Position numbers and translations under genes: made by a program. This document shows, piece by piece, positions 3,813 to 28,600 of a stretch of DNA of 64,000 nt. The DNA lies in IMG/VR virus record IMGVR_UViG_3300031867_000020, positions 32,001 to 96,000 of that record, one strand, 5' to 3'. Below the pieces are notes generated by a model, which worked only from the letters and a program-made list of their open reading frames with translations, did not search any database and had not been told where the DNA came from. The number at the start of each line of letters is the position of its first letter. The stretch's first letter is position 1. Source of the stretch: a virus (taxonomy: Duplodnaviria; Caudoviricetes).

Positions 3813-3895
3813 GGAGAATATATTATGGGCGAACATATAGATGTATTTTGGTGGACTTGGGACAAACATGAAGACAAACAAGAGGAGGAAGACAC

Positions 3896-4270
3896 ATGGT
3901 ACCAAATAATGAAGCCTTTTATTTCTACGAAAAAATGATGGAAGGCCATACGAACAACAACGCTGCGCTGTTTGAAAGCTCTGTCAGGCAATGGCTTGAT
4001 CTCGGGCTGGATAGTCCGTTTGAGTATGACACATCTGAGAACGAGTATTACTATCAGATGCAGCGAGCGCATTCTGTATGGCGCAGACAAGGCTGTGACC
4101 AGAAGATCAACCGCAGGAGGATGATCGCTGCTGCGACAGAACTGGCGAAGCTTAATCTGCCGAACCCGTACACAAAAGTAAAAACAGTTAATCAACCAAA
4201 GACGGCTGCTTACGAACCGGAAGAAGAAAAGAAGACATCTTTTCTTCAGCGCCTATTTCGAAAAGGGTGA
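3896..4270 (+). CDS. hypothetical protein
   Basis: 124 aa, GGAGG RBS. Confidence 0.65.
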   Translation: MVPNNEAFYFYEKMMEGHTNNNAALFESSVRQWLDLGLDSPFEYDTSENEYYYQMQRAHSVWRRQGCDQKINRRRMIAAATELAKLNLPNPYTKVKTVNQPKTAAYEPEEEKKTSFLQRLFRKG

Positions 4271-4276
4271 CAGCAA

Positions 4277-4429
4277 ATGACAGTCATTGAGTTGATTTAT
4301 GCGTTGTACACTTTGCCGGAAGATCTTCCGGTTGTATTCAAAGGGTTTTCGACAGAACCTGTCATAGACGCAACTATTGACGAGATGGTTATTAACGATA
4401 AGACAGAAACCGTTTGTGTTCTGTATTAA
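4277..4429 (+). CDS. small hypothetical protein (50 aa, below track cutoff)
   Basis: MTVIELIYALYTLPEDLPVVFKG...; AAGGGTG RBS; fills the gap exactly. Confidence 0.6.
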   Translation: MTVIELIYALYTLPEDLPVVFKGFSTEPVIDATIDEMVINDKTETVCVLY

Positions 4430-4439
4430 GGAGGGTTTT

Positions 4440-4829
4440 ATGTTATATTCAGCATTTATGTTAAAAGCCAAAGAGGAAGTATTGTCTCAGGCTCATAATG
4501 GCAAGTGGTATCTTGAGCCGGAATGGCGGGATATATTGTATCACAGTATGAATGTTAATCCTGCCAAGCTGAGCGGAAGCTATTCTCCGTCGTGGGAAGC
4601 TATTGAAGATGTGTTAAAGCTTGAAGTCGAAAGACGCAACCTTCTTGAGGATCATACCTCTGAAGTTGTCGACTGGCTTTATGATGTAATCACAACAGCT
4701 GTTGAACCGGCGATGCTTGAAGAGGAAACTGAGTATATTAAAAATCTGACTGAGTATCTGAAAACGACGAACGAAAAAGAGCCGGAAGCAAACATATTTC
4801 CGACTCAATTAAACTTCGAGAAAAAGTAA
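4440..4829 (+). CDS. hypothetical protein
   Basis: Start revised to ATG 4440 after an AAGGAGG RBS. Confidence 0.65.
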   Translation: MLYSAFMLKAKEEVLSQAHNGKWYLEPEWRDILYHSMNVNPAKLSGSYSPSWEAIEDVLKLEVERRNLLEDHTSEVVDWLYDVITTAVEPAMLEEETEYIKNLTEYLKTTNEKEPEANIFPTQLNFEKK

Positions 4830-4838
4830 TTGATTATG

Positions 4839-4868
4839 GGGAGAGATTAATTAATCTCTCCCTTTTTT
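4839..4868 (+). terminator. intrinsic terminator between convergent units
   Basis: Perfect palindrome GGGAGAGATT-AATT-AATCTCTCCC followed by T6. Confidence 0.75.
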
Positions 4869-5086
4869 CTTTTGTAGTCAGTGTAGCCCCATTGTATCTT
4901 TCCGCAGATCCTGCATTCGTACACATCTCCGTGAAGACCAAGACGGTTGGAGCGATAAACTTTGTCGCAGCCAGGACAATAATATCCTAAAATCTTTCCG
5001 CACGAAGAACATACATACAGATTGTCGATCTCGTACTCCGGAACGTGAGTGTCTATCTTACAATCAGGGCAGTATATACCGTTCAT
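4847..5086 (-). CDS. multi-CxxC zinc-ribbon protein (moron gene 2)
   Basis: 79 aa with four CxxC pairs; GGAGG RBS; paralog of its neighbour. Confidence 0.75.
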   Translation of the reverse strand: MNGIYCPDCKIDTHVPEYEIDNLYVCSSCGKILGYYCPGCDKVYRSNRLGLHGDVYECRICGKIQWGYTDYKRKKGEIN

Positions 5087-5103: not shown

Positions 5104-5409
5104 TCAGAACGGGAAAGAGGAAGATCTTGAGAATATTGCGTTACGGAAACGCATTTGTTCAGTGTAGTCCCACTGGACTTTACCGCAGGTTTTACATTCG
5201 TATACATCACCATGGAGACCGAAATTTGTTGAAGGGTACACCTTGTCACACCCTAAGCACTTGCATGCCAACCCACGACAAGGACCGCCATTTGCAGTTG
5301 GAGTTAAGCAACGAAATGTAGTTTTAAGTCCATTATGCGCTCCCCAAATTTCACCTCCACAGCTGGGACATACAACACCCTCAAACCGAAGCTCAACTTT
5401 ATCGCTCAT
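5104..5409 (-). CDS. multi-Cys zinc-ribbon protein (moron gene 1)
   Basis: Start revised to MSDKVEL (GGAGGTG RBS); shares 'GCDKVY.S...GLHGDVYEC..CGK.QW.YT' with its neighbour. Confidence 0.75.
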   Translation of the reverse strand: MSDKVELRFEGVVCPSCGGEIWGAHNGLKTTFRCLTPTANGGPCRGLACKCLGCDKVYPSTNFGLHGDVYECKTCGKVQWDYTEQMRFRNAIFSRSSSFPF

Positions 5410-5442
5410 GTCAACACCTCCATTAGTATTATTTGTGGAATT

Positions 5443-5471
5443 ATTATAACCATTTTGCATGCGAGTGTCAA
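5443..5471 (-). promoter_or_regulatory. consensus sigmaA/sigma70 promoter driving the zinc-ribbon pair
   Basis: Minus strand TTGACA (5471-5466), 17-nt spacer, TATAAT (5448-5443). Confidence 0.85.
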
Positions 5472-5499
5472 CAATATTTTTTTAGAAGGAGGAGCTATT

Positions 5500-8400
5500 A
5501 TGCCAGACGAAGAAATTGTTGCATCAATAAAAGTTCGGCTTGAACAAGAAGGCATCGATAAAGCAGTTACGCAAATCGATGAATTGAAAAAAAGTGCTCA
5601 ATCTTATCAAGACACACTTAACGGAACAGATGATCAGAGACCAGCTTACTTAAACTATGCTACGGATACGTTTGCTTCGTTAAGTAAAACAATGACCGAA
5701 TTTGCAAGTTTAATAAAACAAACAGGTGTTGATATTTCGTCTTCGATGCTTAGACCATTTGAAGCAGCCAAATCTATTATGACTGATATGCAGAAAGCGA
5801 TGGGTGGCAAAAAATTCAATGCTTCAAGCTTCTTTGAAAACGAAAAAACATTTTCAAACATTTTGCATTTAAGTGAGTTTTCTTCTGTTCTTGGGAGAAT
5901 AAATGGTTTGCTCTCTACCGGAAAATCATTTGAGTCCAAGTTTGGTTGGAGTGCAAGTCAATTTAATCAGGTTATGCCATTATTAATGAATAGAACAATT
6001 CAAAATAAAGTCAATGAAATAAAAACAAACATGCGTGACGCCGGAGATTTGGATGTTAATGATTATGTGTCTCAATTGATGAATTCTAAAGCAATTACTG
6101 ATGTATTAAAGAATCAAACTATATCACAAGCTAATTCTCGCGGAATGACGAAATCTCAAATGAGAGAAAATTTGAGACTTGCTCTTATGCTTAATTCGTC
6201 GACAGCAAGAGAACGTTTTGGACGAGTAGCACTGGCTCGTGCTCCTATTGAAAATGGAACTCCTATTATATCATCTCCATTAACAATACCAGCGCAATTT
6301 CGATCTGCATATCTTGGCAGAGGTTATGCTTCGGAAGAAGAATCTAAAGCGTTTCTTTCTTCTTTAACCAGAGAAAAGGCAAATCAAAGTGTTAATCATA
6401 ATGTTTATAGAAGACTCAGAGAGTACGTTAACAATGATGAAGATGGTGTAGTTCTTAATCAGGCATTAAGAGATGCTGGCATTATGCGAATTGTCAACGG
6501 CGAATCTCATTGGGCTAAACGTCTGACTGTTCAACAGGCGAGTTTGTTTGCAGGACTTGCTGCTCGAGAATTATACGATGCTAAAAGAGGTTATACTTTC
6601 TATGATGCTGATCCTAATGACCCTGGCAACAACTATAGAGTTGATAGAAGATTAAATCGAAGAGTGCGAGGAGCTTCTTCTATTCTGTCCATTTTAAGTG
6701 GAGATGAAAATATTAGACCGGAGTTGTCCTTGCGTAATTCCGATGGGAAATGGAAGTATGAAGACGCTGTTGTTGATGCTAACACGGATTATCTTAAAGG
6801 TCATAGGCGTGATCAGATAAGAAGAATATCAAACACACCTGCAATAACTCAGTTTGTTGCACCGAACACTTATGCAGATGAAAAAGGAAATCTTGTATTT
6901 AGAGATCCTAAATGGCAAAAAAAGACACGTTTTGCTGAAGGGGAATATATCGAACCGGATCATATGATCGGTATGACAGATAACTCGATATATGAACTTT
7001 TATCTCACATTAAATGGAAATCTCCGACAACTAATCGCACTTTCAAAGCAGAAGGCCCAGGAACCTTTGGTTGGGGCCGGTACGAAAATAACGTCCTTGA
7101 TTCTAATGGAAATGTAAAATTCAAAAGAGGAGAAGCTATATACGATACTCCTCCGATTATCAGCGTAGATGCTATGGATTATTTCACCGAGGACAAAAAT
7201 GGAAAAACGATAATAAACCCAGATAAAGAAAAAGCTTTTCGTCAACTTTTGAGCGGTTCGAGAAATTATGGTGGAAGAAGCTATTCGTATTTAAATCAAA
7301 GCGAAGGCCAAATCTATATGATCGAAGATAGTGCCAAGAAAGCTATTCAAGAGTGGACAGAAAGCCAAGGAATTCCAGACTTTTTCGAAGGTGGCAATCC
7401 TTTCGGTCTTTCATCTTTGGCGAAAGATCCTAAAGATCTGATAAAACAAATTAACTCTATGCGTAAAAGCACTTCTTCGGCTTCGACATATGAATCATTG
7501 TACGGTAAACTGCCAGAAATGTCGACACGAGTTGCTAATCTGACAGCTTTTTTTAATGCTTTAAGAAAAAGCGGATTTAGCGCTTATGGTAATATTAATG
7601 ACAAAGAAGAAAAGGCCGGAACTGTTCCTGATGGTGTTGCTTTGGGTAATTCTGAATTTTTCAGAAATGGACCAATGCAAATGAGATCTGCTTTGGGTTA
7701 TGGTAAATATGTTCTAAACCCTTATAACTTCAAAGAAATGTTTGGTTCTGTGTTTTCAAATATAGATCAATCAAAAGTCACAGATAATTCGTATAATAAT
7801 AATTGGTTGATTTCAAAAGGAAGCCAGAAAGATCAATTTGATTATTGGCTCCCTGGCATTAACGCAACAGTAGAAGATGTAATGACGTTGATGTCTGGTA
7901 CAAATAGCGGATTATCTGAAGATGAGTTAAGAAAATTAAGAGAAGCACGCTTTTTTAAAGCCACGGAAGAAAACCTCGGTATGGTGATGACAGACAAAAC
8001 ATCTAAACAAAACGACCAATTCAAGCATCTAACATTAAGCCAATATGCTCAGTTTAAAGGATATGGAAAAGATAATGCTGCTCGAAAAAGGGCGTTAGAT
8101 GAATTAAGCAAAAGAGACTTTGTTACAGTAGATGATAAAGGAAAGAAAGTTGCGCATAGCGCGTATGATGCTGCTACCGGTTTAGTTGAATTAACGCCTG
8201 AAGAACAAGGTTTGCTTCATGATAAAATGACTCCTGATTTAATGGTGATGAGAAACGAATATGATTTTGCTAATGAAAAAGGTATAATGTCACAACAGAT
8301 GGCCGCAGCGTTAGGCATCAGTGTTGAAGATATTTCAAAATCAGACGCAGAGTTTGAAAGACGAATCTATGAATTGCAAACAAGTCGCGGCCGAATGAAA

Positions 8401-11400
8401 GCGCTGCAAGCAAGTCCAGCGTATGCAGAAAGAATTAAAGAAAAAGGTTTTGTTTATTCCAATGAGGCTGAGAAATACATTCAGAGTCAAATTAGACAGC
8501 TTAAGAGAGCACAACTTGAAGGATATATTGCACTTCCAGAAGGCACAAGAAAAGTAACAAAACTTGCAGCAGCAACACCAGGTGCTTTCTTGCAGCCTTT
8601 TATGGAGGCTGCCGGAATAAATGTAAACAACATTTCCGACGAAGCTTTAAGGTCTTTGCTTCCATTTATGCTGGATAAAAACGAACAAATAATAACCAGT
8701 CCGGAAGACTTAGAGAACGCAGATCGGGCAGTTGTTTCCAGAGACCCGGCCGCAGTTGCAGAAATGATATTTGCAACAAATGCTTTCGGCTTTTTGTCCG
8801 GTATCAGTGATAAAGGACTTGAAAGTATTATCAGCAATTCTCCTGATGCAATAAAAAGATTAAGGAGCAAACAGGCCGGCTATAGCGAAGGATCTGAAGA
8901 ATGGGATCGCTATCAGCAAAAAATAACTAAAGCAGTGACATTGCAAAAGCAAGCAGCAGCTTATCAAAAATTTAAAAGTTTAACCGGTGTAACAAGCGAA
9001 CAGCTGCGAGGAGCTTCTTGGCTCACAACGCAACAAATGTATGAACAAAACACTGGCGACTTTGATGGTGATGTTATTAATATGTACACCGGGCTGTCTG
9101 ATAAAACAGTAAAAAGAGCCGAGGAGTATAAAGCGAAGGTTGATGCTGCTGGTATAAAGTTTGAAGAAGAAACTGGCAAATTCATGAAGGCAACAGGAGA
9201 AGAACTTGTTGTTAATGATCAAATAGACGCAGAAATGCAAGCTATGCTTTTAACAATTCGTTCAACACAGGCGATGGGAGCTGCATCTAAACTTCTACGT
9301 GAAGCTGGAGCACTCGACGATAATGACCCCAGAAAATGGAGCCTTTTATACGAGGGTAAAAAAGCGTATGACTTCGCAAGTTCTGATATGAGAAAAAAGG
9401 CCGGATTGTTTAATTTCACAAATGATGCAGAAAGTTTAATGAAGAAACAGAATCTGCACCAACGTTTTATTAAAAGTTTGAATGCCTTTTCTGATGTTGA
9501 TTTAAGTGCACTTTCAACTGAAGATAGAGAAACAATAACAAGCAATACAATTAGCGCTTTGTTTAAATCTGGTTTGCCGAGTATAACTGATGCTCAAGGT
9601 TTCATAGCGAGATCAATGACACTTGATAAATTTGCGCACGGAGAAGTTGAAATGTCTTTTCTCCAATCTGATGTTGATCGTTTATTAAACGAACAATATG
9701 GTATGAGCGATACGCCAGAAGCAAACGCAGCAAAACATTGGTCGAATTTAATAATAAAGAATTTATCCGGACAGCTTATCAGTGAAAGAGATATTGAAAA
9801 AGCAAATGAAATTCAGCAAGCGTGGGATATAAGTATAAATCAACGTGGTAACGAAGTCTCAGACAGAGAAAGAACAGAATATGGTAGATTTACCCGAAAC
9901 ACAAAAACTCTTCGAGATAATGCGCCGACCAGAGAAAATATTGAAAATAGATTGGCACAACTAAAAGTCAGAAGAGCAAGTAACAGCGGATATATCGAAA
10001 AGGGTATTGATGATGAGATCAGCGTGTTAGAAAACGCTTTAATGGAAGATGAAGCTATTGAAGGGATTATGAAGGGAATCAACATTGCTGATTGGAAAGA
10101 AACGGAAGAATACAAGCAACAGCAAAAAGAAAGATTAGAAGCACAAACAAAATTAATCGAAGAGCAATTAGGAAAAGGCAAAATATCTCAACCATGGGAA
10201 AAGATTAAGAATAAAAATATGAACTGGTCTTCTTTCCAGAACTGGATTAAAGGAGATCAAGAATATAGAGTGATGAGTTTTGATGAAAATGGTTCGTCTG
10301 TTGCTCCAGTTAATATTAGTTTTGATAATGCAAAATATCGAGAGAATACTGCTTTGCAAGAAATGCTCGGAAAAAGCGAACAAACAGCTGCTATGGGCAT
10401 TGGTACTCTTATGCATCAAGCTTTTGAAGATTATTTTAACGCGAGGATGGATGGAACGCTTAACGGTAGAACAATTGATGATATGTTTGAAAATCTAATA
10501 GGAAACGGTGATACAAAATTTGTTAAAGATATTCCTGGTATAAGCATAATACCAGGAAAAACAAAGGAAGGAAAAACAGTTTACAACGTTTCAAGTCCAT
10601 ACCATAACGACGATAATGTTGGTAAACTGAATAACATTCTTCCTGTGCCTAAAAACGAAGTATCAGGTTTACGGAAAAGCTTAGCCGCATTAGAAGCTGC
10701 AGGCTTTGATTTAGATAATCCTGATAACATTGAGGGCGATATTCTTACATATAACAAAGGCACAAAAAAATGGGAAGCAACTGGAACTCGTTACGATAAG
10801 TTTGATTTAAAAGTAAGAGATTTTAATGCTGATGGATCGGTGAAAAAGGACGATAAAGGAAATGATGTTTATCGCACAGTTCAAACATATGCTCGTCCTG
10901 ACTTGATGCTTCATCATAAAGGCGGTAAGTTCCAAGGTCACGAATACGATGAAGGATATTATGTTATTGACTACAAATCCGGATTTGAGGGCGCTAAACA
11001 CTCTCTTAAACAGTCTGCTTTTTACGCTGCTTTATATAATCGAGCCGCAGAAGGATATTACAATGCTATTGATAAACAAAATGCCGGAGAAGAATTAACT
11101 GCAGAAGAAGCAATTGCTTTGGAGGAAGGTCGTAAATATGCCCGCTATGGCGAAATGGCCACTGATAGCAGTGGGCACAGGTATTACAGATCAAAAATTA
11201 AAGGTGCAATCGGTTTAAACCCCAATGGCAGTAGTGTTTTGTTTGACGCTCACACGTCATCAGATTTTGCAACTCAATGGAATTCTGCTTTATCAGAAGC
11301 ACAACAGGCAATAGAAGGCAAATCTCTTGAAGCAATTTTAGCCGGGACAGGAATGAGCGATAACGCTTATGATAAAGCACTTGCTTCCATGATAAGAGCT

Positions 11401-14400
11401 GAAAGAGCGCATACAGAAACACAAAAAACAACTCAAAGATTTGACGAAGATTATAATGCCGGAATGCGGATGGATGAAAATAAAATGAATTATTTTTTGG
11501 CGAGATATACAAAAGATCTTGATGAAATGAACCGGATCGGATCTTTGATACGAAAAGAAAGTGACGAACCGCCTACAAAATATAATCGATTTGCATTATA
11601 CAGAGATCAGTTAAGCAGCGTTTTACCAGATGAAGTTTATCAAGCAGCAATCAATAGATATGAACCTGGTAGTCCAGAAGCTTTGCAAATACAAAGCGAG
11701 ATGGAAAGAAAAAGGAGATACTTAAGCCAGATAGAAGCTTTGAATTTTGACGCAGCAGTAGGAGATTGGACTAAGTTATCTGACCGCGTTGAGTCAACTA
11801 TCGGTGGAGCAAAAGTTTCCAGCACATCATCTTCACTTCAAAGCATCAATAACAGCTTTTTAGATGCTCAACAAACAAGAAAAGGTCTATTTGAACGAAC
11901 AGTCGCAGTAGATAAAAAAGATGAAAATGGTAAGATTATCGGTTCAGAAGCGAAATCTATTATCAAAGGACCGTTATCTGATTATATGACAAATGAACAA
12001 AAGGCGGATTTATTTGATATTGAAAATGAAAATGAAGAAATACGAAAAGATGCAAAAGAGAGTCGAGATCAGTTTTTAGCGTCAATAGAAGCTGAAAAGA
12101 AAACGGCAGAAACGATTAAAAAGCATTTGCCAACATTGTTCAATGCTGATAAAACACAAGATGCGCAAGAGTGGGCTAATATCACAGGAGAAATTCAAGA
12201 TCCATCTACAGTCTTAGAGCAATCCTTTGAAGCAAAGAAAGCAGAAATAACAAAAAGGATTCTTTCATGGAATAAATCAGTTGCAGAAATGCAAAAAGAT
12301 ATAGATGATAATAATGCCACTCCTGCTTTAGTTCCTTTCTACAAAGAATTAATTAATGAATATAGCAATCGTGCCCAAAGAGAACAAAGTTATCTTGATA
12401 GCAAAGGATATAAAGAAAAAATAGTTAACGATGAAATGCAGCGTCTTGGTTTGTCTGGCGCAGAAAACGCGCAAGATAGAGCAGCAAAATGGGCGGATGA
12501 ACGACAAGCGGCGATCGATAAAGCGTTAGAAGTTAATTCTGAAGAATTCGCAAGGATTTCACGAGAGACAAGAAATCCATCCAACGAAAACGAACGTGAA
12601 GCAAGATTCGCCAAGCTGAGAGAAATTAATGAAAGGGCTCAAGGCTTATACAGACAAAGAGCGCAAAACAGAGAGCAGAGAACTGCTTTTGAACAAACAT
12701 GGCAAGAAGAACAGGATGATAGATTAACTAATTTTGATAATATGATTAACAGAAAGAGACTTTCTGATGAGGACAGAATTGAAACTAATGTAAAACAAGC
12801 AAGAAGACAAGCTCTGTATAATTCAATTGATCCTAAAAAGACAAAACAAGAAAGAGAAGAATGGTATAAAAGATATAAAGATGAAGACTACTGGAAGTCG
12901 TACAGGGGCAACCTTCAGCAAGAAACAAATAATGATAACCAACTTCGTGATCTTAGAAGAATAAATAGTGAAGAACAAAATCTTGCGGATATTCAGATGC
13001 GTGAGAAGCAAACGCAATGGGCGAGGGATGACTTCTATCGCAACCTGCAAAATCGAAATGGCCTTGGCTATACGATGTTTGGCCGCAACTATCTTACTTA
13101 TCAAAACCGTAGGATTCAACTTGAGAGAGATAATACACGGAGAACAAGTCAAAATGAGAGCATTGATAGGCAAGTAAAAGATCTTGATCAACAAATCAAA
13201 AATGCAAAAGCGCAAGGTAAAACAGAAGACGCAAAAGACCTTGAAACCAAAAAAGCGAACCTTTTAGCTAACAAGCAATCCAATCTGGATGAGATCAAGA
13301 GAACACAACAGGAACTGAATGGTTTAAGTGGCGCTGGGAATGCCGTCAATGCAACCTTTGATACAATAGGTCAAACGATCACAAGGTTCACACAACGCAT
13401 AGGAAGACAAATGTTCCAAAAAGCTCTTCAGGAGACAAAACGGTTTATCAAAGAATTTGATTCTTCGATGAATGAAATTCAAGCTATTACGCTGAAGGGC
13501 GATCAGGCGATGGCGAGTGTTCGTAGCAATACGATCAACAAAGCCTTGAACCTCAGAACTTCTGTTTCCAATGTTGCATCTACAGAAGCCGCGCTTTACA
13601 GGCAGGGTTTAAGTGACTCAGAGGTTTCTCAAAGAACAGATGCGATCGTAAAGTTTGCAACTGTTGCAAAGCTGAAAACCACAGAAGCAACGAAGATCAT
13701 CACAACAGCTCTTCAAAATAACCTCGTTACCTCTGCGGAGCAAGCGATGGACGCGCTTGTCGCTCTTGGCGACAGCGCTGCGACTACCGCTGCGGAGATC
13801 GGCAAAGGTATGCAAAAGGCTGCCGCGTCCGCCAAGGTTGCCGGTGTGTCTTATGCTGAACTTACTTCTTTGTTAACCTTTGGTACAAGCGATACGCAGC
13901 TGAGCGGTTCTCAGGTTGGTACAGCCTTACAGACTGTGTTTACACGTATGAGAAGGCTTACGGCTGACAACTGGGTTGCTGATCAGAACGGCGAAAAGAC
14001 CACGGCAAACGACGCAGAAAAGGCTTTGAATACGATTGGTGTTTCTCTGTGGAGCGACAAAGCAAATGGTCAGATGCGTGGAGCTTATGATATTCTTATT
14101 GATATTGCCAAGGTATGGAATAGCATCAGCGATGCCCAGAAGAGCATTGTCACCAGCGCTTTGGCTGGAACACGTCAAACGAACATTTTCTCTACGCTTA
14201 TGGAAGGTCTCGGAGAAGACGGCGGCAAGAGAGCTGAGGAATATCTCGGGCTCGCTGAAAGCAGTCAAGGCATTACTCAGACCAAGTATGAAATTGCCAT
14301 GGAAAGCCTGAATGCTTCTCTCGAGACAGTGAAATCTTCGTGGGATGCTATTGTAGAAAGCTTTACAAACAGTGGTACTATCACCGGTGTTCTTGATGGT

Positions 14401-17400
14401 GTCTCTGGCTTTATGCAGATGATAGCTAACTTGGCAAGCACAGGTCCTGGTCAGTTTACAACGGTGTTTGCCGCGATTGCCGGAGGCATCGCTGCTGTTG
14501 CTGCTGCTTCTGCTCTGTTGACGACAAGCAATCCTGTGTTAAAGACTTTGAGCACGTTGTTAACAGTTGTAGCTGGTGTTGGAACGTTTGGTATATTAAC
14601 ATCCATTGCCGGGTTATTCGCAGGAGAAGATATAAACACACAAAAAGAAAAAAGCTTGACTAAAATGCATGAAGAAGCAGTAAAACGAGAAGGCAAAAGA
14701 GCAGAAAGAACAAAAGCAATTAGCGATGTAGAAGAACTTGGTGCTGCTTATGATGAATTAGCAGAAGCAGAAAATAGTGCAGCTTTAAGTACAGCATCAA
14801 ATAATTTAAAATCTGCTTTGCTTAATCTTGCTGATGTATTTCCTAATTTAACAGCACAAATTATGGATTCTACAAGTTCGCTTAAGGACTGGAGAGACAT
14901 CGTAGATAAAGCGAAAAAAGAAAATGAAGATATAACAGCAGGTGAAATGGATGTCATAATAGCAAAATCCAGAGAACATAATGATAAATTTGATGATTAT
15001 ATGGGTAATATTGAAGATCCGTCATCTATTGAATCAGATTCTGTACGAGCCTTATACACTATACTCCATGCAGCCAATGCGTCTGGACTGGTTTCAAATA
15101 AGGATGTTGAAGATGGAATTAGTGCATATGAATTATATACCTTAGGAAACAAAACAATGAATGGATATTTTAAAGATTACACAGATAAGGTTGGAGGAAT
15201 TAATTTTACAGATGATTTTAGTTCAGACAACGAAGCATATATCGATAAACCACAAACGGACTTTTTAAAAGAATTAATTGAATCAGACAATCCGCACATA
15301 AATCGAAGTTTAAGAAAATACTATGATGAAAATAAAAAAGCTTTTGGATGGGTTGATAATAATGGCGAAGAAATATATACCTATGATGACTTTATTTCTG
15401 CATTAAAGGGAAACGAAACTGATAATGTTTATCATATGGCAAACGCAGCTGGTACAGCAAGAGGATGGATTTCTGAAGATGCTACCAGTCATTATGGAAG
15501 CAATTTTTTAGCAGGTATGTCTTTAAATCCGATGAGAGCAGAAGTGATTCAGTCGATCTTTGATGGTTTTGACAACAATAGAACTATATCTGTTGCAAAA
15601 GGCGTTTTAAAAGGTGGAGTTATTGATCAAGCGAAAGAATACTTAGATGCGTTCGAAACAAATGGATTAATGACACTTTTATCTGAAGCAACAGGTGGTG
15701 AGTATAGTGCTGATTTCATAAAAGAGGTAATGGAAAGACAAATCTATGATATCTTATTTGATGAAAACGGCGAAATGAAAAAAGGTGTAACAATAGAAAA
15801 TGTTAACACTGGATTAAATAATTTCTTAGATGGATACATGACAGCAAAGGATAAAAGAAAATACTTGCAAGAATATATTGATCAGTATGCATCTCCTGAT
15901 ATGTATGAGTATTTTCTTCCTGATGAAAATGGAGGAATTGAATACAAAGGGTATACAACTATTGAAGCGGCAACAAAAGCTGCAAAAGAAAAAGGAATCG
16001 GTACGGAAAACATCATGGTATCCGACGGAAAGGGTTGGTATAGGGCTTATTACTCTACTCCTGAAGAAGTGATGACTGCAAGAGTTATGGCTGGAAAGTC
16101 GGGAGGTATAGGATATAACGAGAAAAGAGATTTCTTAAAAGATATGAATAAGTTTGATAATATTGGTGCTTTAAAAAAGGAATATAGTGGTGATAAATCC
16201 GAAACCTTTGGTTCGCTTCTTTCAGGTGATGTCAGTACCGCTGCTTATTATATGGCGGAAAATGGTCTTATCAGCTATAATAAATTTAAAGATATATATG
16301 GAAGGAATGTGAACGGACAAAACACGGACTTTGATCTGATAGAACCTTTCCTGAACGAGAATGGTACGATTAAAAATATAGATCTTCTGAGAACAGACGA
16401 GTTCAAAGGAGCAAGACAGGCTTTTGAAAATGTATTTGGCTCTACTACTTTCGCTGAAATGCTTGATAAAACGGATGAAATTACTCGCGCCGAATTTGAT
16501 AAAATTAAAGAAAAGGGTTTATGGACAGGTGATTTTGAGTCACTAATGACAGATTATATGCCTGAAAAAGATGATACTGTTTCGGTAGCTACACGTTTCT
16601 TACAAAAGGAGCTTCGGGAACTAATAGCAAATGCTGTTGGTGCTTATGAGTTTGATGAAGATCTTGCAAGAACCGTAAAGCAAGCACAGGCATCCAAAGA
16701 AATAGAGAGAAAGTTCCAGTTCGATGAAAACTATGATACGATCAAAAACTATGGTTTAGCTTTTGGATATGGAACAGAGACGCAGAAGAATGCATCGCGT
16801 GCTCAAGTCAGAAGCACAACGACAAACCTCGGCAATTTCAACGCAGCTGTTGACAGATATACAAATGGCAAGGCTCGCGATGAAGATTATCGTGTTATTG
16901 CCGGAGTAACAGGAATGTCTGAAAGCTATCTGAGAAATAATGCCAACAGCAAAACCACAAAAAATGTTGTAGGTGCAAGAAGAGATCTTGACATTCAATC
17001 TCAAATCGATCTGTACGGAAAAGTCCGTGAAGCCTCTGGTATAAAAGAAAACTCTAAGCAAGACAAAGAGTTGCTGAATCTGTTTGGATTAGAAAGAGAC
17101 AAAGATGGAATCATTCGTTTTGTCGCACAAGAAGACGTTGTCTCAAATAATGTTACACGACAAAACCAGATCAACAACTATGATAGAGCTTCTCTTCGTG
17201 ATGCGTTTGGATATGCTATCACAGACGAAGGTAAAATTTATGGCAGTGACAAATTGGTTCAAAGAGCACTTGCCGGCAACGAGGAAGCATACGGAAGACT
17301 TACTCAAGACGAGCTTTATCAGGCATATGCAAACGCGGGCATTGAAGGTAATGATTTCCGTAACATGATCGGACGCAGAGCGAAAGGTGTAACCGGAACT

Positions 17401-20400
17401 TATGCTCAAAACTGGTCTCCTGTTATGGCAAAATTGATGGGATCAAGCAATGTAGATGAATGGGATTGGAAAAAGATCAGAGAGAATTATCAAAATGGTA
17501 CATCTGAAACCAAGGCAGCATACGAAGCTTTGTTTGGGGCGACTACCAACGGACAGCAGGCTCTTGATTATCTTACCGGTGCGAGCAATAATATGCCGTC
17601 GGCTTCTTTTGCCGCCGGAGTAAAAACTCAGATGTCCGGAGTTGAAGGTGTTAATTATTCCGAGCAGTTTACTTCTTCTGATATTTCTCGTCTTTCTGGC
17701 CGACTGCTTACTGATGGCAGAAGCTGGAACGATCTTAAAGCGGCGAATCTATTTAGTGATGAAGAATGGGCCGCTATTGAACAAGGAAATGCTGATCTTG
17801 TTTCGTATCTGAAGCTTGAAGACAAAACAACTCCTTATGCCAAGAGGCTCAGAGAAAGTGCTCAGCTCAAGATGCTTGAAGGCAAAAGATATGATTCTTC
17901 CTCCGACGCGGCGGCGTATGCCAGAGCTTTATTTAACTATCAAAACAAGCCAGCTCTTGCTGCACAAACAGCATATGATAACAGGAAGAATTATTCTGAT
18001 ATCAGCGAATTTATTAAAGCGCAAGAAAGCTTAAATGGTTGGACTGATCTTGTTGCTACACAGGAATACCAGGACTGGTATAAAGAGTATGTCGAAGGCG
18101 GAAAGAGTTATGATGAAGCGATTGAAGCATTCTCCGACCTGACCATGTACAACAGAGGAGCAAACTACAAAACATCTGCCGAAACAGCGGATATTGTGGA
18201 ACGAGCTCTTCAATCTACAGATCGCCGTAATAATACTGCTGAATACAAAGCCATTCAGTCTGTTCTCGGCAACAAAGCTGCTGCAGACTGGCTAAATGGA
18301 GAAGATCTCACCAACAATGCGACATATCAAAATATGATCAATAATTATAGATATGGACTCTCTGGATATACTGGGGCTCAGATTAGGCAAGGTCAAAGAA
18401 ATATTGCCAGAATGACTCAGGAACAACTCGGAAAAAGGTTGTTAAGTGAAGAGTATAGAACTGAAGCTTCTCAATACATGTCTGGTTTCAGCGAATGGAA
18501 TGAATACGCAGCTTTGCTTCAAGCTAAGGCGAGTGGAGAAAAGTATGATGAAGCTGAATTAGATAGACTTCAAACCAAGTTTGATCGGTTTAATGAGCAG
18601 GCTCAAATACAATTTGAGGTTGATGGTATTAGTGATCTTGAACAGGCTGGAGAAGTTGTCAGCGGTTTAAGTGATACCATTTCGAAGATCAAGCAGGGCG
18701 GAAATATTGCGATCAAAGCATCTGTTGAATTCGAGAACAATGAGCATCAAACGCTTCAATATGGAGCGATGTTGGACAGCGCGTCTCGATCTGATCAGTA
18801 TACGGCTGTAAAAGCCTTAACTGGTTGGAGCGACGCCCGAATCCAAAGCGACTGGGCAGGAGCGATGTCTGCTGCCAGAGCTATTCACGGTGTTAATGTG
18901 TCCCAGTACGGCAACTCTGACGAAGAAATCGTTGCTGAGTTAAATAGGAGATATGCGAAAAATCCTGAAGATGCACTGGAACTTGCAAATCTTTTAGGGT
19001 TTGAGCTTACAACTGATAACGAAGGAAATATATCTCATCTTTCATTTAAACGCATCGGAAACGGATCAATTGATCGTGAGAATCGTTTCCATGAAACAAC
19101 CCGCCAATACACAGCGCAAGAAATTAACGACGCAAGAAGACGGATGTTAAATGGAGAGAACTTAAGCCAAGAAGATAATGACTTATATAATGCAGCTTCG
19201 GATAACGCTGGAAAGTATTTAACGGCATATCTGAAGATGATGAACAATCCAAGCGCTTATACCGACCAGGAAATTGCAGAAGCAAGACGGCGTGCAGAAC
19301 AAGAGCTTAATCTTGAAGGGAAAGATGCGCGCAGAAAACCGCTGGAGGATTATGCTCTCTACGAAGAGAACGAAGCCAAGGTTAAAATGGCAACAGACAT
19401 ATATGACGCATATAGCAACGTTGATCAGACAAAGCGTCGTTCCATGATGTCTACAATTAGCGGTGAATTCGAAGGGATTCAGAATGCGCAATGGGCATTA
19501 AATCAAGGTGCGACAACAAGCACATCGAGGAACTACATTGCATCCGTTCTCGGTTTAAGTGAAAAAGATGTTCAGAAAGCTATGAGAACCGATGAAGGTA
19601 AAAAACAACTCCAGGAAGATTTGCAATCCAAGAGCAAAGACTTATTCAAATCTGTTCTTGATGGATATGGTAAGGCTTTTAAAATTGAATTCGATACATC
19701 TGATACTGGGGTTGAGAATGCAGTTAGTCAAATTCTGGAGAATGCCAGCACGCTCGGAACAGAAGTGACGAATTATCTTCTGCATCTTGCGGGACTTATG
19801 ACGAGCGATGGTCTTCTTGGAGAAAATGATGACTACGATTTTGTAACAGCCATGATGAACGCTTCTGATAATTACGCTGAAACCAAAACTTCTGAACGTG
19901 GTTATTTATGGTTATCTGAACATCCAGAAGAAGCAAGAGAGCTTTTGTCCAATCCTACGATACTTCCTGAAGGATACACATATGTTGAAGGCAAGGGAAT
20001 ATATGATAGCACTGGCCTTCTTGGGTACGATACGAACAGTGATTTGTATCAAAGATATCAAGCGCAAAGACAAATTTCTCAAAGCTCCGGTGTTAACTGG
20101 ACCAAATTCACAGAACAAGAACCTATAATAACAGCAGCTATCTTGAATCACGGTGAAGGCGGCGTTGGAGATGAGTTATACGACGCAATAATGACAGCAG
20201 GCGTTACAGGAGTTAAAGGTTCTGATTATTATGGAGCTATTGGCTCGAATTATCTCGGTCGGTTTGCTGGCATTAATGGCGGTATTACCGGTATTAATTC
20301 CATGGAAGACGCAGAAGAATTTATGGGGCTTGTTCAAAAATGGCAAACTGATGAAACCGGAAATGGTGCTATCTTTGATGAATGGTATAATAGCGTTGAG

Positions 20401-23400
20401 GGCATGTCTGATCTTATGGGCGCTATAGATAGCAAAAACTTTGATAAAGTGGGCGAGGCTATAGGTAAGATTAATGATCAAGTAAGCGACCGGAAAGCAG
20501 CCGAAATAACGAAATACGGAAATGCTTCGGATAAAGCACTTAAAAAGATCGGTGGATATTATAACAAGATGAACAGTCTTTCATACAAGAATGAAAAGCT
20601 CAATGGCATTATTGGTAAAGCCAGCGCTGGAAAAGGCGGAGCTTCTCTTTCTTCGAAAGAACTTGAAGTCCTAAGCGAAGCTACAAACATGTCTACCGAT
20701 GCTCTTAAAGCTACTGGAGCAAATGCGATAAAGTCTTTGGCTGAAGGCGCAAAAGATGCAATTGATACAGAGTGGGGACAAGAAATTGCTGAACCTCTCA
20801 TTAATAGCATTAATGAGGGTATACAACACCTGAATTTGAATGATAATGAAAAATTACAGCTTACGAGGGCTATTGATTTGTCTGTTGATGCAAATACAGG
20901 ACAGGTAGATATTTCCGCTTTGGCTGATGCCGTTGCTACTTTTGATAGCAGTCTCGCAGAAACACTCCGTGCCTACGATGGACACGGAGGAACGCTTATG
21001 GCTGAGTGGAAAGAAGGCCAGAGTTCTCTTGGATATATTTTAAAATACCTCGGATCCGGAACGGGCACTACCGGCGGTAAAGGCGGCGGAGGAGGCGGAG
21101 GTGGCGGAGGCAAGTCCGAAGTCGACAAACTTCTCGAAAAGCAAAAGCATGCCGTCACCGAGGCCGAGCATAACGTCAAGATGACCCAGATCGAGGGCGA
21201 GCATTATCAGAAAACTGGTGACTACGCCGCTTATCTGAAGATGCTCGATCAAGAAATCGCCGCGCAGGAAAAGCTTGGGCAGGTATATCAAAAGAATATT
21301 AAAGAAATGAAAGCGCAGAGAGATCAGGTTGCGTATGGTTCGGATGACTGGTATAAGCTGACGGAGTCCATCTTCTCTACAGAAGAAGCTTTGGCTCAAC
21401 TGAAACTTACAATTAACGAGATCAATGGCAAGAGAATTGACGCGCTGATCAACAGACAGGAAGTAAGCCTCAGTCCGTATCAGCACGCAGGAAAATTGAT
21501 GTCCACAGCAGCCAACAAGGCGTTGACACTTAAAAACTATTCTGATTATTATTATCTTGGAAAAAGACAAAATACCAACGATCAGATGACGATCAATGCA
21601 AATAATAAGTCTATCGATCAACTGAAAGAAGAACTTAAAAAGGAAAAGTATATGAGTGAAAACTGGATTAAGGTTCGTCAGCAGATCTGGTCTCTTCAAG
21701 AAGAGAATGCTGAGCTTGAGCTTAGCATTGTTGAACGAACCAATGAGATGAACCATCAGAGAGTTGCTCAGATCGCAGAAGAACTTGAGCGGAATAGGCT
21801 CGCTGATCCTACGCATGGAATGAATATGGAAAATGCTGCGGCTCAGTATTATCAGAGGAACAGGCTTTATGATGAGTATCGTGGATCGTTGACCACATCA
21901 AACACCTTTGCTCAGTCTCAGGTTTCGGAATACAGAAAGGCAATTGCTGCGCTGAAGGTTCGCATGAACGGCTTTGAGCCGGATTCCGATGCCTGGTATG
22001 AAGCCAGAGATATGGTTTACAAGTACGAGGAAGCCATTGCTTCGCTTACTAATACTATTGATGAAAACAAACATGCGATTCAGGAGTCGTATATCACCGA
22101 ACTGGATGAAGAATTCCAGAGAGGAGACAGCATTTACAGTCTTGAAAAGAGCATGCTTCAGGCAATGGAAACCAAGTATGATAAGGATAATGACTTTGTG
22201 AATTATCTGAATATTATTGGAATCGAAGCAAATCAGGCAAAGGATCGAATGAATGAACTTAGCGATCAGCTTGTTCAATGGGAAGATCTTCTTGCAAGCG
22301 GCCTGATTGATGAAGGATCTGCTGAATGGGATGAGCTTATTCAGAAGATCATGAGCGTTAGGGAAGAAATGATTAATGTTGGCGTTGAATATGATGACTT
22401 TGTCCGGAAACTTCAACAAAGTCGGTTTGCGCATGATAAGGAAGTGTTCGGACGTGAGGACGAATACAACCAGCATCGAATCAAACTGATTCAGTATGAG
22501 GAGTCCAGGTATCAGAACCTTGGTGAACTGACCAACTATGGCACTATGCTTGAATATGATAACGTTGAACAGCAAAGACGCGCTGAATCCATCGCAAAGT
22601 ATATCGAAGTTCTGAAGCAAGATCTTGCTGAGACGGAAGAAGGCACTGATGTCTATCATGAGATCACATCTGAAATCATGAAGATGGAAGAGAACCTTGC
22701 GACCGTAAACAACACAATCGAAAAGAATAACAAACTGCTTGAGCAGAACAGGCTGAACATCCTGAAAGTGCATAAAGCGCTGGACGATGTGATCAACACA
22801 GAGATCAAGCGCAGAGTACAAGAACAGCGAGACATGCTCAATGCTGAAGTAACGCTTCAGGATTCCATTGTGGATCAGATCAGAAAGCGGTATCAGGACG
22901 AATGGGCGCTTGTAAAGAAAGATATCGAAGAGAAGAAGAAGGCTCTGAGTGAAGAGAAGAATCTTCTCAACGAACGTCTCAATGCCAGAAAGAATGCTGT
23001 TGATCAGGAGTCCAAGTATGAGAAGCTGGCTGAGCTTCAGAAACAGCTTGCGCTGATTGAAACAGATCCGACAAAAACCAAAGAAGCCAAGTTGATCGGA
23101 AAGCAAATTAAGGATCTTCGACAGGAGATCTCGTTGAGTATCGCGGATCAGGAAGTGCTTGCGGAATCCGAACGTATTGATCAGCAAACGCAGGCTCTGA
23201 CAGATTATGCGACAGATTATGAAACCAAACTCAATGAAGCTCTTGCGGATGCTAATAACAAACTGATCGCTGATGAGCTTGATCAGGTGATGAGCGGTAA
23301 TTTTGAAAGCTATATTGAATGGATGAAGACTTACAACAAAGCTTATCAGAATGCCACAGAGGAAGCAAGAAAACAGATGGAGCTTGGATGGAGAGACACC

Positions 23401-24490: not shown

Positions 24491-25597
24491 ATGGTTGGAG
24501 AGTTTACATTCAACGGAATAGACATAGCCGCACTTGGGCTGCATTATGTTCCTGAGCTTGAAGATACTTTTGTTTATAAGCCGGCAAAAACAAATATCTA
24601 CGATGAGACCTTTGATGGTCACAACGGAGGATATTTCTATGGCGCAGCCAGAGAACCAAAAGAGTTTATTCTCAGGTGCTATTATGAGCACAAGCATATC
24701 AATCGCGGTATTATGTCCAAGGTCTATCAAACATTTAAAATCGGAACGTCTGGTAAGCTCATTTTTCAAAAGCGTCCATGGTGTTATTACTACGCTACTG
24801 TGACTGATATTGATTCCACGGAATCTTTTAACTATGAGAACGGTCTGATTAAAATTACGATGAAGGCATACTATCCTTTTGCCCGATCTGAGATGTTTTA
24901 TATCGATCCCAATGATGAGGATTATAAAGTCATAGAAAGGAACAGTGCGTTCCTGCCAGCAGTAGTGGAAAATCCGAGCCAAATTGTGGCCTGTCCCATC
25001 GAGAATGAATGTCAGGTTATTCTTCTCAATCAAGGCACAGAAAGGGCTCAAATTCGCCTGGAAATCGCAGGTGATGTTGGAACCGGTGTTACGATCCGAA
25101 ACGAAACAAATGGAACAGAGTGCAAGTATGTAGCAATGGGCGCACAGAAATTCAACGGGAACAGCTATGTTTACACAGATGGTATTAGTGGAAAGACCAT
25201 TTCTGTGATCGAAGGGAAGAAGGCTTTGGCTTTCCTGTACCACGATCATGGCTTCATTGAACTCGATCCGGCCTATCCTTGTAAACGGGATGTCCAGATC
25301 GTTGGAGATGAAGAAGGTATTTACACTGAAGATCTCTATGATAAGTTTCTTGGAGAAGCTTCAGCAGATCAATATATTGGGCATTATGTTTATATTGATA
25401 ATATGTGGCGTGAAATCGTTGAAGCGACTACGGATATCACCGGAACACCTCTGACAACGCTGATCATCGATCCTCCGGTTGATACTACCGTGGAAGAAAC
25501 GACATACGTTGTGAAAATGAACAAGATCTCTATTATACCGGAAACAACGATGAATTTAAAAAGGCTCAACTTCATTTCTCAACCAACATTTGCATAA
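24491..25597 (+). CDS. distal tail protein (Dit)
   Basis: N-terminal 'FTFNGIDIAALGL' and 'ITMKAYYPFA' Dit-type motifs; immediately after the TMP. Confidence 0.8.
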   Translation: MVGEFTFNGIDIAALGLHYVPELEDTFVYKPAKTNIYDETFDGHNGGYFYGAAREPKEFILRCYYEHKHINRGIMSKVYQTFKIGTSGKLIFQKRPWCYYYATVTDIDSTESFNYENGLIKITMKAYYPFARSEMFYIDPNDEDYKVIERNSAFLPAVVENPSQIVACPIENECQVILLNQGTERAQIRLEIAGDVGTGVTIRNETNGTECKYVAMGAQKFNGNSYVYTDGISGKTISVIEGKKALAFLYHDHGFIELDPAYPCKRDVQIVGDEEGIYTEDLYDKFLGEASADQYIGHYVYIDNMWREIVEATTDITGTPLTTLIIDPPVDTTVEETTYVVKMNKISIIPETTMNLKRLNFISQPTFA

Positions 25598-25609: not shown

Positions 25610-28600
25610 TTGAAACATAAACCAACATTGCGCTTGGATGTATGTGACTATCATAATACTCCTCTGTGCAATTTATATGACAACGAATATGATATATCCG
25701 GTCAAGCCAAGGATGTGTTTGTAAAAACAGAGCGAAACGGATGGAAAGAATTAAGGTTTCAAATTCCTTCTGTACTTATCAGCGAAGATGGGGAGGAACC
25801 GAACTTTCGCCTTGATTACCTGATTGCGGATTATCGGCTTCGCCTGGTTGATGATAATGAGACAGACTGGTTCTTAATATCAGAACCGAAGATTACGCAC
25901 AACCAGTTTTCGAAGAAAGTTGAAGTCAGGGCAGGTCATATCTCTCAGCTCTTAAAAACAAAGAACCTGAGTCTGGAATTCTCTGATGAAGATGGGAACA
26001 ATGTGGGAACGGCTGAACAGCTTTTGACAACAATCCTCGAAGGAACAGGATGGCATGTCGGCCACGTTGATACATTCTACGAAGATGATTCGGACAAAGT
26101 TAAAGTACGATCTCTTCAGGCTGCGGCTAAAACCGGAGCATTCAAGCTTATTCAGGATATGTGTGAGCTATTCGACGCAAAGCCTGTTTTCCATGGGGAT
26201 AACAGGACTGTTGATATTATTCCTATGAATCCTTTCTCCGAAGTAAAGGAGGGAGAAATTCCAAAAGAAGTTATCAGCGGGATGCGCAATGCCGTAGAAC
26301 TGCATTATGACCGGAGTTTAAAAACAATTTCCCGAACGTTGAATACTGAAAATATAGTAACGAAGCTTCACGCGGAAGGCGCTTCTTCTGGAGACACCGA
26401 TCTCGGTTATGTGAACATGAAAACCTGCTGGCACGACGAATATCGATTCTCATTAAGCAGCAGCTACACAAGCGGACAGGAATTTGCCTTCAAAGATAAG
26501 AACGACGCAAATTATTATTTCACAATTGATGAAGATATTGAAGCTTCGGATATTCTAATTTGGTCTAAGATGGATCCTGCGTCAGCTTCGTATGTGTGGA
26601 ACGAAGGAACTCAAAGAGCTTATCATGTTTATAAAGAACCCCATAATTACAGTCAAATGATCCATCTTGAATCTACAATAGAAAGCAAACAAAACTGGTT
26701 TGAATATCTGATGGATTTTGACTACTACGAGAAAGTGGGTTTGTTAACCGAAGAGTCTTTTCAGGCATTGGCTGGGTTTCAACGGGACTGCGCTTTGTAT
26801 AAAGAGGCTGCTTATAATGCTTCTATTATCAGAGCAAAAGCCTTGAGTGAGTTCAGTGAGCTTGGTGATCCTCAAAATGGGTTCCTGAAACTGAATGTCA
26901 CAGGCTACACGTCCGATCAGGAAACTGACGCTGTTGTTTTGAATGTTGACGGCGTTCTTTATCGCAGTGACTACGACGAAGCAGAGCGCAATTATTTCCA
27001 ATGGCACGTAGCCAAGAAGCTGAAACCCAATGGCGATCCTGTTTCAGGAGCTCCTTCGGTTGTGTTTATCATTCACAACACCGATCCTGTTTCCTGGGAG
27101 ATGTGTTATCTGAAAGCTGTCGGTGATGAAAACGGTATTTATCTTGACAGTCAGAATGAGCCTGCCGACTATGATTATCAGATCACAGGCAAGCCTGAAC
27201 CTACAAGAGTTTGGTTATGGAATGCACTAAGAACAGATGGAGGCAGCATTCCTGCTTTCAGTAGTGATGACCGTTTCTATCTTCTTTGCACAAAGTCTAT
27301 ATCAGGGCAGCTTGGTTCTTATCAGGTGCAGGATGAAGCGATCACAACAAAGCATATTCAAACAGCCGTTTATGACACCATGGTCGAAAGACCTGTTTAT
27401 TATAAAAACTACTACAGTTCTGAAATACCTCCGCTGGATGTTGTCTCTGTTCAAGGTGCTTACGGATGGTATTATTCATATCATTATGACACACCGGAAT
27501 ATGGCGAGTTGTATTTCTGCGGGCCTACAGACACGGAATGGCAGCCGGTTTATGTTTCCGAAACGCAGCCTGAATTTGATATAAGCACTGATCTTGGAGC
27601 TTATTTCTTTGATACGAAAAAGAGGCTGTTGTATATCGGACTTACTGATGGTTGGACAAATCAGGACAAAGAGGAATGGCATCAGCTTGAAAACAAATTC
27701 ACAAAAGTTCTTTTGTATTCTTATCAGCGGGACAGATACTACAAAGGTATATATGAGTATTACAACTACACGCCTGATGAGGATCTGCCAGCGGGAAGAT
27801 ATGCTTTTGACAGTGGATATGATTTTTACTGGACATTTGTGACAGATCGAACTGTTGAAGCTGGGAATACTTTGTCGCTTGATACGCTAAATAACTTCGT
27901 AAAGCAGGATGAGTCTGTAGAGCATATCGTTGGAACATTCTCTCAGCCGAAAGATGTCACAACCTTCCTTTCTGAGAATGAACTTGACTTCGACAGTTTT
28001 GTCAGCGGCGGGCTGGACAGCCAGACCGGCATTGACACAGAAAGCTCTTCTACTTACAGAAGTCAATATATTGATGTGTATCCGGGAGAAACATATGAAT
28101 ACAATCTTTCGGCAAATACGCTTGTTGTCTTCTATGATTCTGCCAGATATTATCGTGACAGCATTTATGCATCAGGCTCCGGAACATTCGTTGTTCCGGA
28201 TCAAACCAACCACGACTATGAGTCTGACAGCTACAAACCTGCTGCGACAAAGATGCGGATCATGACAAGAGCGCTGACTGGTTATATCAGAGTGTCTGGT
28301 TATGAGAACAAGATGTATCTCAACAATCAGTCTGATCTGTTGTATACGATCCTGCCTGTGACTGAAACACTCGGAGAATTAAAAGGCATTAACAATCTGA
28401 CAAAGAAGTTTGCCGATCTTGCGGATCTTATTTATGGGCCTTATACGGATGCCTACAACACCGCAAATAATCTCGTTATTCAAAGTGAGAATCAGCTCGT
28501 TGAAGATCTTGGCGATATTCTAAGGGAAGGTTTCTGGCAGGAGAACAGGTATGTTGGTGGAGACGAAGACAAGCTCTACAAAGATGCTATTGAGAATCTG

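Follow-up and report, generated by a model that had tools for sequence, protein, structure and literature searches.

Tape measure proteins (TMPs) are usually regarded as rulers and conduit formers, and the locus described here raises the question of whether one of them also carries a nuclease. The DNA analyzed (referred to here as the window; 64,000 nucleotides) comprises bases 32001-96000 of the 107,884-bp IMG/VR virus record IMGVR_UViG_3300031867_000020, an uncultured phage rated complete. Within it lies a giant TMP open reading frame (ORF). An earlier note on this DNA had claimed that the ORF holds a RecB/Cas4-like PD-(D/E)xK nuclease domain between an RNA polymerase (RNAP)-like region and the tape-measure core, and had suggested that the virion injects the three together as one polyprotein. 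Translation of the ORF places the cited motifs to the base within a single polypeptide of 6,363 amino acids, with a GDFDGD motif upstream of the domain and the Pfam PhageMin_Tail core downstream (Table 1). Based on conservation, profile comparison, and fold prediction, residues 1622-1975 very probably fold as a RecB-family nuclease with an intact active site of seven motif residues.

Conservation, fold, and active site of the domain

In a full HMMER search of 1.84 billion protein representatives, five true relatives of the domain were found. Three are giant proteins (P0003, P0004, and P0005, of 5,646, 6,256, and 5,782 amino acids, respectively), and two are fragments (P0007, 402 amino acids; P0008, 91 amino acids). 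One further candidate, P0006, was rejected as spurious; it is a tenascin-like eukaryotic protein. In the family alignment (A9), identity of the relatives to the domain of the window is 24-36%. Among the five sequences that span the domain in full, 38 of its 354 columns (10.7%) do not vary. Residues H1694, E1698, D1856, D1879, K1881, Q1893, and Y1897, which make up the motifs, all fall within these 38 columns (7/7; naive chance, 1.6e-7). H1694 and E1698 are covered by five sequences, while D1856, D1879, and K1881 are covered by six; the 91-amino-acid fragment also keeps the D, the DYKS, and the Q...Y. Judged on these alignments, the motif pattern exceeds chance.

For fold prediction, an AlphaFold (AF2) model of the domain was built from the family-only alignment A9 (7 rows), without templates and without Cas4-like sequences. 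The whole window protein was added as a bridging row, which keeps the short query contiguous in MAFFT against rows of 6,000 amino acids. An alignment to which Cas4-like sequences had been added was excluded, as it was mangled and would have made the fold test circular. The resulting model has a mean predicted local distance difference test score (pLDDT) of 72.6 and a predicted template modeling score (pTM) of 0.72. It displays a restriction-endonuclease-like core with an H...E pair on the first helix, D...(D/E)xK on consecutive strands, and a QxxxY helix, followed by further strands to residue 352, and this order of secondary structure follows the PD-(D/E)xK fold. The conserved C-terminal strands include IKGAIG (nucleotides 11197-11223). 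Positions 10220-11060, to which the domain had been assigned, do lie within it, but the fold continues for ∼200 nucleotides past 11060, to about nucleotide 11259.

The model was then compared with 48,161 representative solved chains using VIA-align. The top 10 of these matches were all RecB-family nucleases (Z scores of 4.8-7.8), and each match extended over model residues 1-354: Dna2 (5ean_A; 198 residues aligned; Z 7.8), AdnAB (9np6_A, Z 7.0; 6ppu_A, Z 6.5), MGME1 (5zyu_A, Z 6.4; second entry, 5zyt_A, Z 6.3), AddB (3u44_B, Z 6.3), the Cas4-family protein ACE1 (9iab_B, Z 6.0), a Eubacterium rectale exonuclease (3l0a_A, Z 5.2), AdnB (6ppj_B, Z 5.1), and RecB (5ld2_B, Z 4.8). Every chain with a Z score of at least 5 belongs to the RecB family, and Cas4 chains appear further down the list (Z 3.9-4.2). 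The weight of this result lies in the exclusivity of the match list and not in any single score. For an earlier model with a pLDDT of 55, built from a poorer alignment, structure matches were mostly noise, with Dna2 at rank 15. The earlier note had staked its proposal on a restriction-endonuclease-like fold and on catalytic residues that do not vary among homologs, and the domain is predicted to have the first and was found to have the second.

Independent of the model, the domain can be compared with a nuclease that the phage itself encodes outside the window. This canonical PDDEXK_1 protein (255 amino acids; 75.7 bits) lies on the minus strand at L003:1486-2253, equivalent to G000:C1:103567-104334. 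In hhalign, a 120-sequence alignment of this Cas4-like family was set against six aligned sequences of the TMP domain, giving a score of 29.3 (P 0.0031). By comparison, 40 column-shuffled queries scored 15.0±2.2 with a maximum of 21, placing the real score 6.6 standard deviations higher. In the hhalign register, PDLML is paired with VDLVL, IDYKS with CDHKS, and QSxFY with QQLxY; in an extended alignment, the H..E motif joins the register (GxLMHxAFE versus GTLIHxLLDxW), and all four motifs of the two proteins then correspond. This profile result depends on the deeper, six-sequence query, which includes the sequences of the giants.

Nuclease domains of the RecB family (Dna2, AdnAB, MGME1, AddB, RecB, ACE1, and the Cas4 protein SSO0001, 4ic1) thus share their fold and motif order with the TMP domain. 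They sit in helicase-nuclease machines or stand alone, whereas the TMP domain is embedded in a virion structural protein. It also differs from them in an insert of ∼120 residues, in a sub-cut-off Pfam score, and in invariant tryptophans that, by motif comparison, fall within the N-terminal segment bearing the first cluster Cys in Cas4, AddB, and Dna2. The insert (residues ∼1706-1826) is modeled as a small alpha/beta subdomain, with a pLDDT of 71-88 over most of its length. The profile alignment shows nothing equivalent to it in the Cas4-like family, and it is specific to the family of the TMP domain.

The absence of an Fe-S (iron-sulfur) staple, also claimed for this domain, holds throughout: there is no Cys among its 354 residues, and none in the whole of the giant homologues P0003-P0005. 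The sole Cys of the window's TMP is at residue 34, upstream of the likely start at Met56. The four-cysteine Fe-S cluster of Cas4 proper (PF01930; AddB/Dna2/Exo5-type) is therefore missing from the domain, which for this reason is not a strict Cas4; the term "Cas4-like" applies to it only loosely, in the sense of RecB family. RecB and MGME1 likewise have no Fe-S cluster. By motif comparison, NWSSFQNW appears to occupy the place that the Cys-bearing SxLSSFxEC has in Cas4-like nucleases; the invariant W1631 and W1637 would then lie in the segment in which Cas4, AddB, and Dna2 carry the first cluster cysteine. The extended hhalign alignment starts past NWSSFQNW and sets SSFSEC opposite a later stretch, and it does not confirm this correspondence.

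Table 1. Positions of the nuclease domain, its motifs, and other features of the tail module (window coordinates)
Feature	Residues	Coordinates	Strand	Remarks
RecB-family PD-(D/E)xK nuclease domain, as modeled	1622-1975	10198..11259	+	354 residues
NWSSFQNW segment	1630-1637	10222..10245	+	N1630, W1631, and W1637 invariant
GIGTLMHQAFE	1688-1698	10396..10428	+	Translation
GxxMHxxFE motif, first core helix		10405..10428	+	H1694 at 10414-10416 and E1698 at 10426-10428; invariant; model helix 64-84
Insert of ∼120 residues, after first helix and before catalytic sheet	∼1706-1826	10450..10812	+
ARPDLML	1853-1859	10891..10911	+	Translation
Catalytic Asp ("PD" of ARPDLML)	D1856	10900..10902	+	Invariant (6/6); start of model strand 236-240
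VIDYKSG	1877-1883	10963..10983	+	Translation
(D/E)xK motif	D1879-Y-K1881	10969..10977	+	Invariant (6/6); end of model strand 253-257
KQSAFYA	1892-1898	11008..11028	+	Translation
QxxxY motif	Q1893...Y1897	11011..11025	+	Invariant; model helix 263-295
GDFDGD motif, RNAP-like N-terminal part	1241-1246	9055..9072	+	NTGDFDGD in 4/4 giants
Giant TMP ORF	6,363 from first ATG	5335..24426	+	Uninterrupted; Pfam PhageMin_Tail and TMP PHROGs
Tape-measure core (Pfam PhageMin_Tail)	∼2736-2945	13540..14169	+	E 2e-27
Distal tail protein (Dit) gene, directly 3' of TMP		24491..25597	+	phrog_33, E 7e-15
Tal-like minor tail/fiber protein gene		25610..30340	+	phrog_6211 and phrog_2929

Isolation of the domain in sequence space

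At the level of curated sequence models, the domain lies at the edge of detection. Pfam PDDEXK_1 (PF12705), a family against which the earlier note had proposed a search, matches it over the DxK-QxxxY part, but the score of 19.0-19.3 bits (E 0.0012-0.0015) does not reach the curated cut-off of 22 bits. Pfam Dna2 matches the H..E helix with 12.5 bits (E 0.1), also below its cut-off. In the ESM Atlas feature search, PDDEXK_1 accounted for 14 of the 30 nearest clusters (score, 0.90). The domain is a member of the RecB family by virtue of fold and motifs, and not by virtue of a curated sequence model.

Other searches returned no informative relatives. GenBank phages gave no match to the whole gene in megablast, nor to the domain or the polymerase-like part in tblastn. 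Searches of PDB sequences with the domain (phmmer and profile searches) gave nothing or noise, and neither NCBIfam nor PHROGs matched it. A protein homology search with the region retrieved only the TMP itself, and none was retrieved with a three-sequence alignment. Searches for related loci in IMG/VR, GTDB genomes, and JGI metagenome contigs gave chance pattern matches only; the degenerate DNA pattern [IV]DYKS-x4-A-x5-Q-x2-[FY]Y was found in no viral contig and in six metagenome contigs, none of them related by tblastn. As far as these comparisons reach, the lineage of the domain is highly diverged, unusually isolated, and overlooked by routine annotation.

Among the relatives, the fragment P0007 is encoded on a Logan contig (L001:2-1798, plus strand, frame 2) on which Pfam gave no match. 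The contig carries a single frame homologous to the TMP; the NWS..W segment lies within this frame, ahead of the gene as called. The frame contains only two in-frame stops (nucleotides 407 and 1688), both of them TAG, and the source of P0007 probably reads TAG as a sense codon.

Profile similarity to the phage's own Cas4-like nuclease does not extend to pairwise comparison. A BLASTP alignment of the two proteins was not significant, with the H..E motif as the best local pair, and on this account the TMP domain is, by sequence, not a recent duplicate of the stand-alone protein. A narrow HMM (hidden Markov model) of the Cas4-like family gave very weak matches to the giants; for P0003 and P0005, the strongest or first-listed of these lay in the motif region. 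The stand-alone protein has four invariant cysteines (C19, C241, C245, and C251) and sits beside a primase-helicase-like gene, whereas the TMP domain is Cys-free and sits in the tail module. The stand-alone protein is presumably the replication or recombination nuclease of the phage. Since the phage keeps this separate, four-Cys enzyme, the TMP copy is not an ordinary recombination or replication nuclease. The neighbor of the stand-alone gene is an ORF of 475 amino acids, which is primase-helicase-like by the look of its sequence.

The tape measure protein and its polymerase-like part

The ORF at 5335-24426 is a siphovirus TMP because it carries PhageMin_Tail and TMP PHROGs and is followed by Dit- and Tal-like genes. 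The gene caller's product is slightly shorter than the full ORF, with 6,308 amino acids and a start at Met56 (nucleotide 5500). Five TMP PHROGs match around the PhageMin_Tail core, where conservation within the protein is highest (among the giants, 56-70% identity). An enzyme domain and a tape-measure core are hence found in one polypeptide within a siphovirus tail module.

Across the N-terminal 3,100 residues, the four giants (the window's TMP and P0003-P0005) are mostly 20-70% identical, far above the values for residues 3200-5000. By identity, the enzyme-bearing half of the TMP is the conserved half. Residues ∼3200-5000 (window positions 14935-20334), past the core and a transmembrane stretch, are 8-21% identical among the four giants and rich in gaps. 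The absence of Cys from the giant TMPs is in keeping with storage outside the cell, probably in an unfolded state in the tail.

Upstream of the nuclease domain, all four giants contain NTGDFDGD, which in the three homologues lies ∼600 residues ahead of the nuclease. Co-occurrence of DFDGD and the nuclease, which the earlier note had put forward as a check, was found in the same order in each of the four full-length members. The nuclease domain is as well conserved as this neighboring polymerase-like part. A profile comparison of the TMP with gp96 of phage P23-45 aligned 40 columns around DFDGD only (P 0.004). A PDB sequence search with the polymerase-like part gave no match, and a comparison with the YonO paralogues of the phage (see below) gave no significant match. 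The upstream part is therefore described here as putatively RNAP-like, a label that refers to the neighborhood of DFDGD only. An RxP-type segment, VSRDPAAVAE, stands ∼100 residues before DFDGD (window positions 8700-9100; residues ∼1130-1250) and shows a nonsignificant alignment to LRSPHLYCE of a YonO paralogue; the stretch between this segment and DFDGD shows low conservation and many gaps, as though a barrel insertion lay there.

Outside the window, the phage encodes two paralogues of ∼930-950 amino acids (L011:79-2874 and L012:154-3015, both on the minus strand), which match phrog_8308 and carry the motifs DVDGD and DYDGD. Against GenBank phages, the L011 protein is 35% identical to YonO, the single-subunit RNA polymerase of SPbeta, over 90% of its length (E about 1e-122). 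Counting the DFDGD module of the TMP, the phage may hold three polymerase-like genes. Because of the YonO-type paralogues, the host is probably a member of the Clostridia/Bacillota.

A TMP that carries an RNA polymerase has already been published. Virions of P23-45 contain gp96 (5,002 amino acids; DFDGD at residues 779-783) as a full-length fusion of RNAP and TMP, which transcribes pre-early genes, and the authors propose that it acts at the TMP pore during DNA entry (PMC10770324). The TMP studied here resembles gp96 (and its counterparts in P74-26, G20c, and TSP4) in being giant (6,308-6,363 versus 5,002 amino acids) and in having an N-terminal DFDGD ahead of the ruler part. The YonO-type paralogues, alongside the putative polymerase part of the TMP, parallel the pairing of virion and nonvirion polymerases in P23-45, whose extra polymerase is of the gp64 type. 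The two phages differ in host (Thermus for P23-45; probably Clostridia/Bacillota here) and in the nuclease: Pfam detects only Peptidase_M23 in gp96, with no PDDEXK signal, and a nuclease is nowhere mentioned in the gp96 paper (Chaban et al. 2024, PMC10770324). A phmmer comparison of gp96 with the giants detected no similarity.

Enzymes that travel with DNA are known from other contexts as well. Polyvalent proteins of phages and plasmids often hold nuclease-type domains, and the survey that describes them makes no mention of TMPs (Iyer et al. 2017, PMC5512222). Like the N4/crAss-like virion RNA polymerases, these proteins bring enzymes that precede gene expression into the cell inside very large polypeptides, but both are capsid or conjugation cargo and not TMPs. 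Our literature search turned up no description of a nuclease inside a TMP, nor of its placement between a polymerase-like part and the ruler core.

Delivery, substrate, and competing explanations

When a siphovirus infects, its TMP exits the tail with its C-terminal end first and forms a conduit for DNA, while its N-terminal end adjoins the leading DNA end. In the phage studied here, the N-terminal polymerase-like part and the nuclease would arrive last, beside the leading end of the DNA. The nuclease, present in few copies per virion, would in this way reach the conduit's cytoplasmic mouth and refold there. The missing cysteines and Fe-S cluster fit storage in an unfolded or extended state in the tail lumen, followed by refolding without cofactor assembly. 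Since the nuclease would be tethered and low in copy number, the entering end of the phage genome is the favored target. There it would most likely trim or resect one strand, an activity favored because the nearest structural neighbors act on single-stranded DNA ends, as Dna2, AdnAB, MGME1, AddB, and ACE1 all do. Resection could feed the adjacent polymerase-like module with a single-stranded template, or it could expose terminal redundancy for annealing and circularization.

The steps of this account merit different degrees of confidence. The domain is likely to be catalytically active. Its delivery with the TMP, by analogy with gp96, is somewhat less assured, though still reasonably probable, and the chain as a whole (a real nuclease domain that is both delivered and active) is only slightly on the favorable side of even. 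That its substrate is the end of the phage's own genome is suggested tentatively, as a claim that falls short of probable. The injected polyprotein of the earlier note, with end processing, host attack, and counter-defense as its candidate roles, stands as a reasonable reading by analogy with P23-45 gp96. A bolder version would make the nuclease and the polymerase-like module one injected machine, in which the resected strand is the obligatory template or entry site for promoter-independent or single-stranded-DNA-dependent pre-early transcription, perhaps with a further part in circularization of this temperate phage; this version we consider doubtful.

Several observations weigh against the account given above. 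The Pfam score stays below the curated cut-off, and the AF2 model rests on only six distinct sequences. All VIA-align Z scores are below 8, a range that the tool rates as middling, and Foldseek searches of the PDB and BFVD with the model of pLDDT 72.6 returned no match. When hhalign was run with a shallow, three-sequence query, the alignment was spurious (P 0.13). P23-45 manages without a TMP nuclease. Furthermore, the "DTR" of the record is an exact overlap of 127 bp (G000:C1:1-127 and 107758-107884), as assembler k-mers typically leave; such an overlap points to an assembly that is circular or permuted and is not proof of physical terminal repeats. Real terminal repeats were for this reason rejected as support for circularization. 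Finally, activity, delivery, substrate, and the link to the polymerase-like part are inferred.

Of the competing explanations, the one that survives best accepts a delivered and active domain and changes its target. The nuclease might act on the host chromosome, on plasmid DNA, or on defense nucleic acids (single-stranded DNA guides, msDNA), as a counter-defense or host-shutoff effector. This possibility draws on the nuclease-type domains that are frequent in polyvalent proteins traveling with DNA (PMC5512222) and on the housekeeping Cas4-like nuclease that the phage already has. However, a nuclease tethered in low copy number to a TMP that spans the membrane would be ill placed to degrade a chromosome, and a domain that occurs in 4/4 full-length members, conserved to the same degree as the polymerase-like part, resembles a core function. 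We regard a host target as unlikely.

Alternatively, the domain may have the nuclease fold and not cut, serving to bind DNA ends, as a module that anchors the genome terminus where the TMP lies nearest the head, or that caps and shields the entering end from host RecBCD/AddAB. PD-(D/E)xK folds are often reused for binding, the position of the domain beside the virion DNA end suits an end-holder, and a nuclease stored next to packaged DNA must in any case stay silent. Pure binding modules, however, usually lose the D, D, K, H, E, Q, and Y residues, which here are invariant among sequences of 24-36% identity, and a noncutting role is accordingly improbable.

A still smaller chance attaches to a nuclease that serves the adjacent polymerase by cutting nascent RNA or the displaced nontemplate strand of R-loops, for instance so that pre-early transcripts made at the conduit are freed or processed. 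PD-(D/E)xK enzymes can be RNases, as exemplified by the influenza PA endonuclease, and the nuclease directly follows the DFDGD module in the same order in every full-length member. Nevertheless, the nearest structures are all DNA-end nucleases and not RNases, the TMP-fused polymerase of P23-45 has no nuclease partner, and the polymerase identity of the upstream region is itself only putative. Last, the view that there is no nuclease domain, and that a large, rapidly evolving structural protein shows the motifs by chance, can point to the sub-cut-off Pfam score, the lack of PDB sequence and Foldseek matches, and the failure of hhalign to give a real alignment with the shallow query, but it is very improbable in light of ten top structural matches that are all RecB-family, a profile score 6.6 standard deviations over shuffles, seven invariant motif residues, and an order of secondary structure that matches the fold.

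If a RecB-family nuclease is indeed delivered with the TMP, the idea of an enzyme-carrying TMP drawn from P23-45 would widen, and siphoviruses would be able to send a limited set of enzymes that handle DNA and RNA through the tail. The finding also raises the question of what becomes of the DNA end that enters first, be it resection, template preparation, circularization, protection against host RecBCD/AddAB, or competition with these enzymes. The Cys- and Fe-S-free copy in the tail and the four-Cys Cas4-like enzyme in the cytoplasm form a natural experiment on the design of tail-delivered enzymes. Should the nuclease and the polymerase-like part prove to be a coupled machine, this would represent a new way to start an infection, in which the processing of DNA ends is tied to transcription before gene expression.

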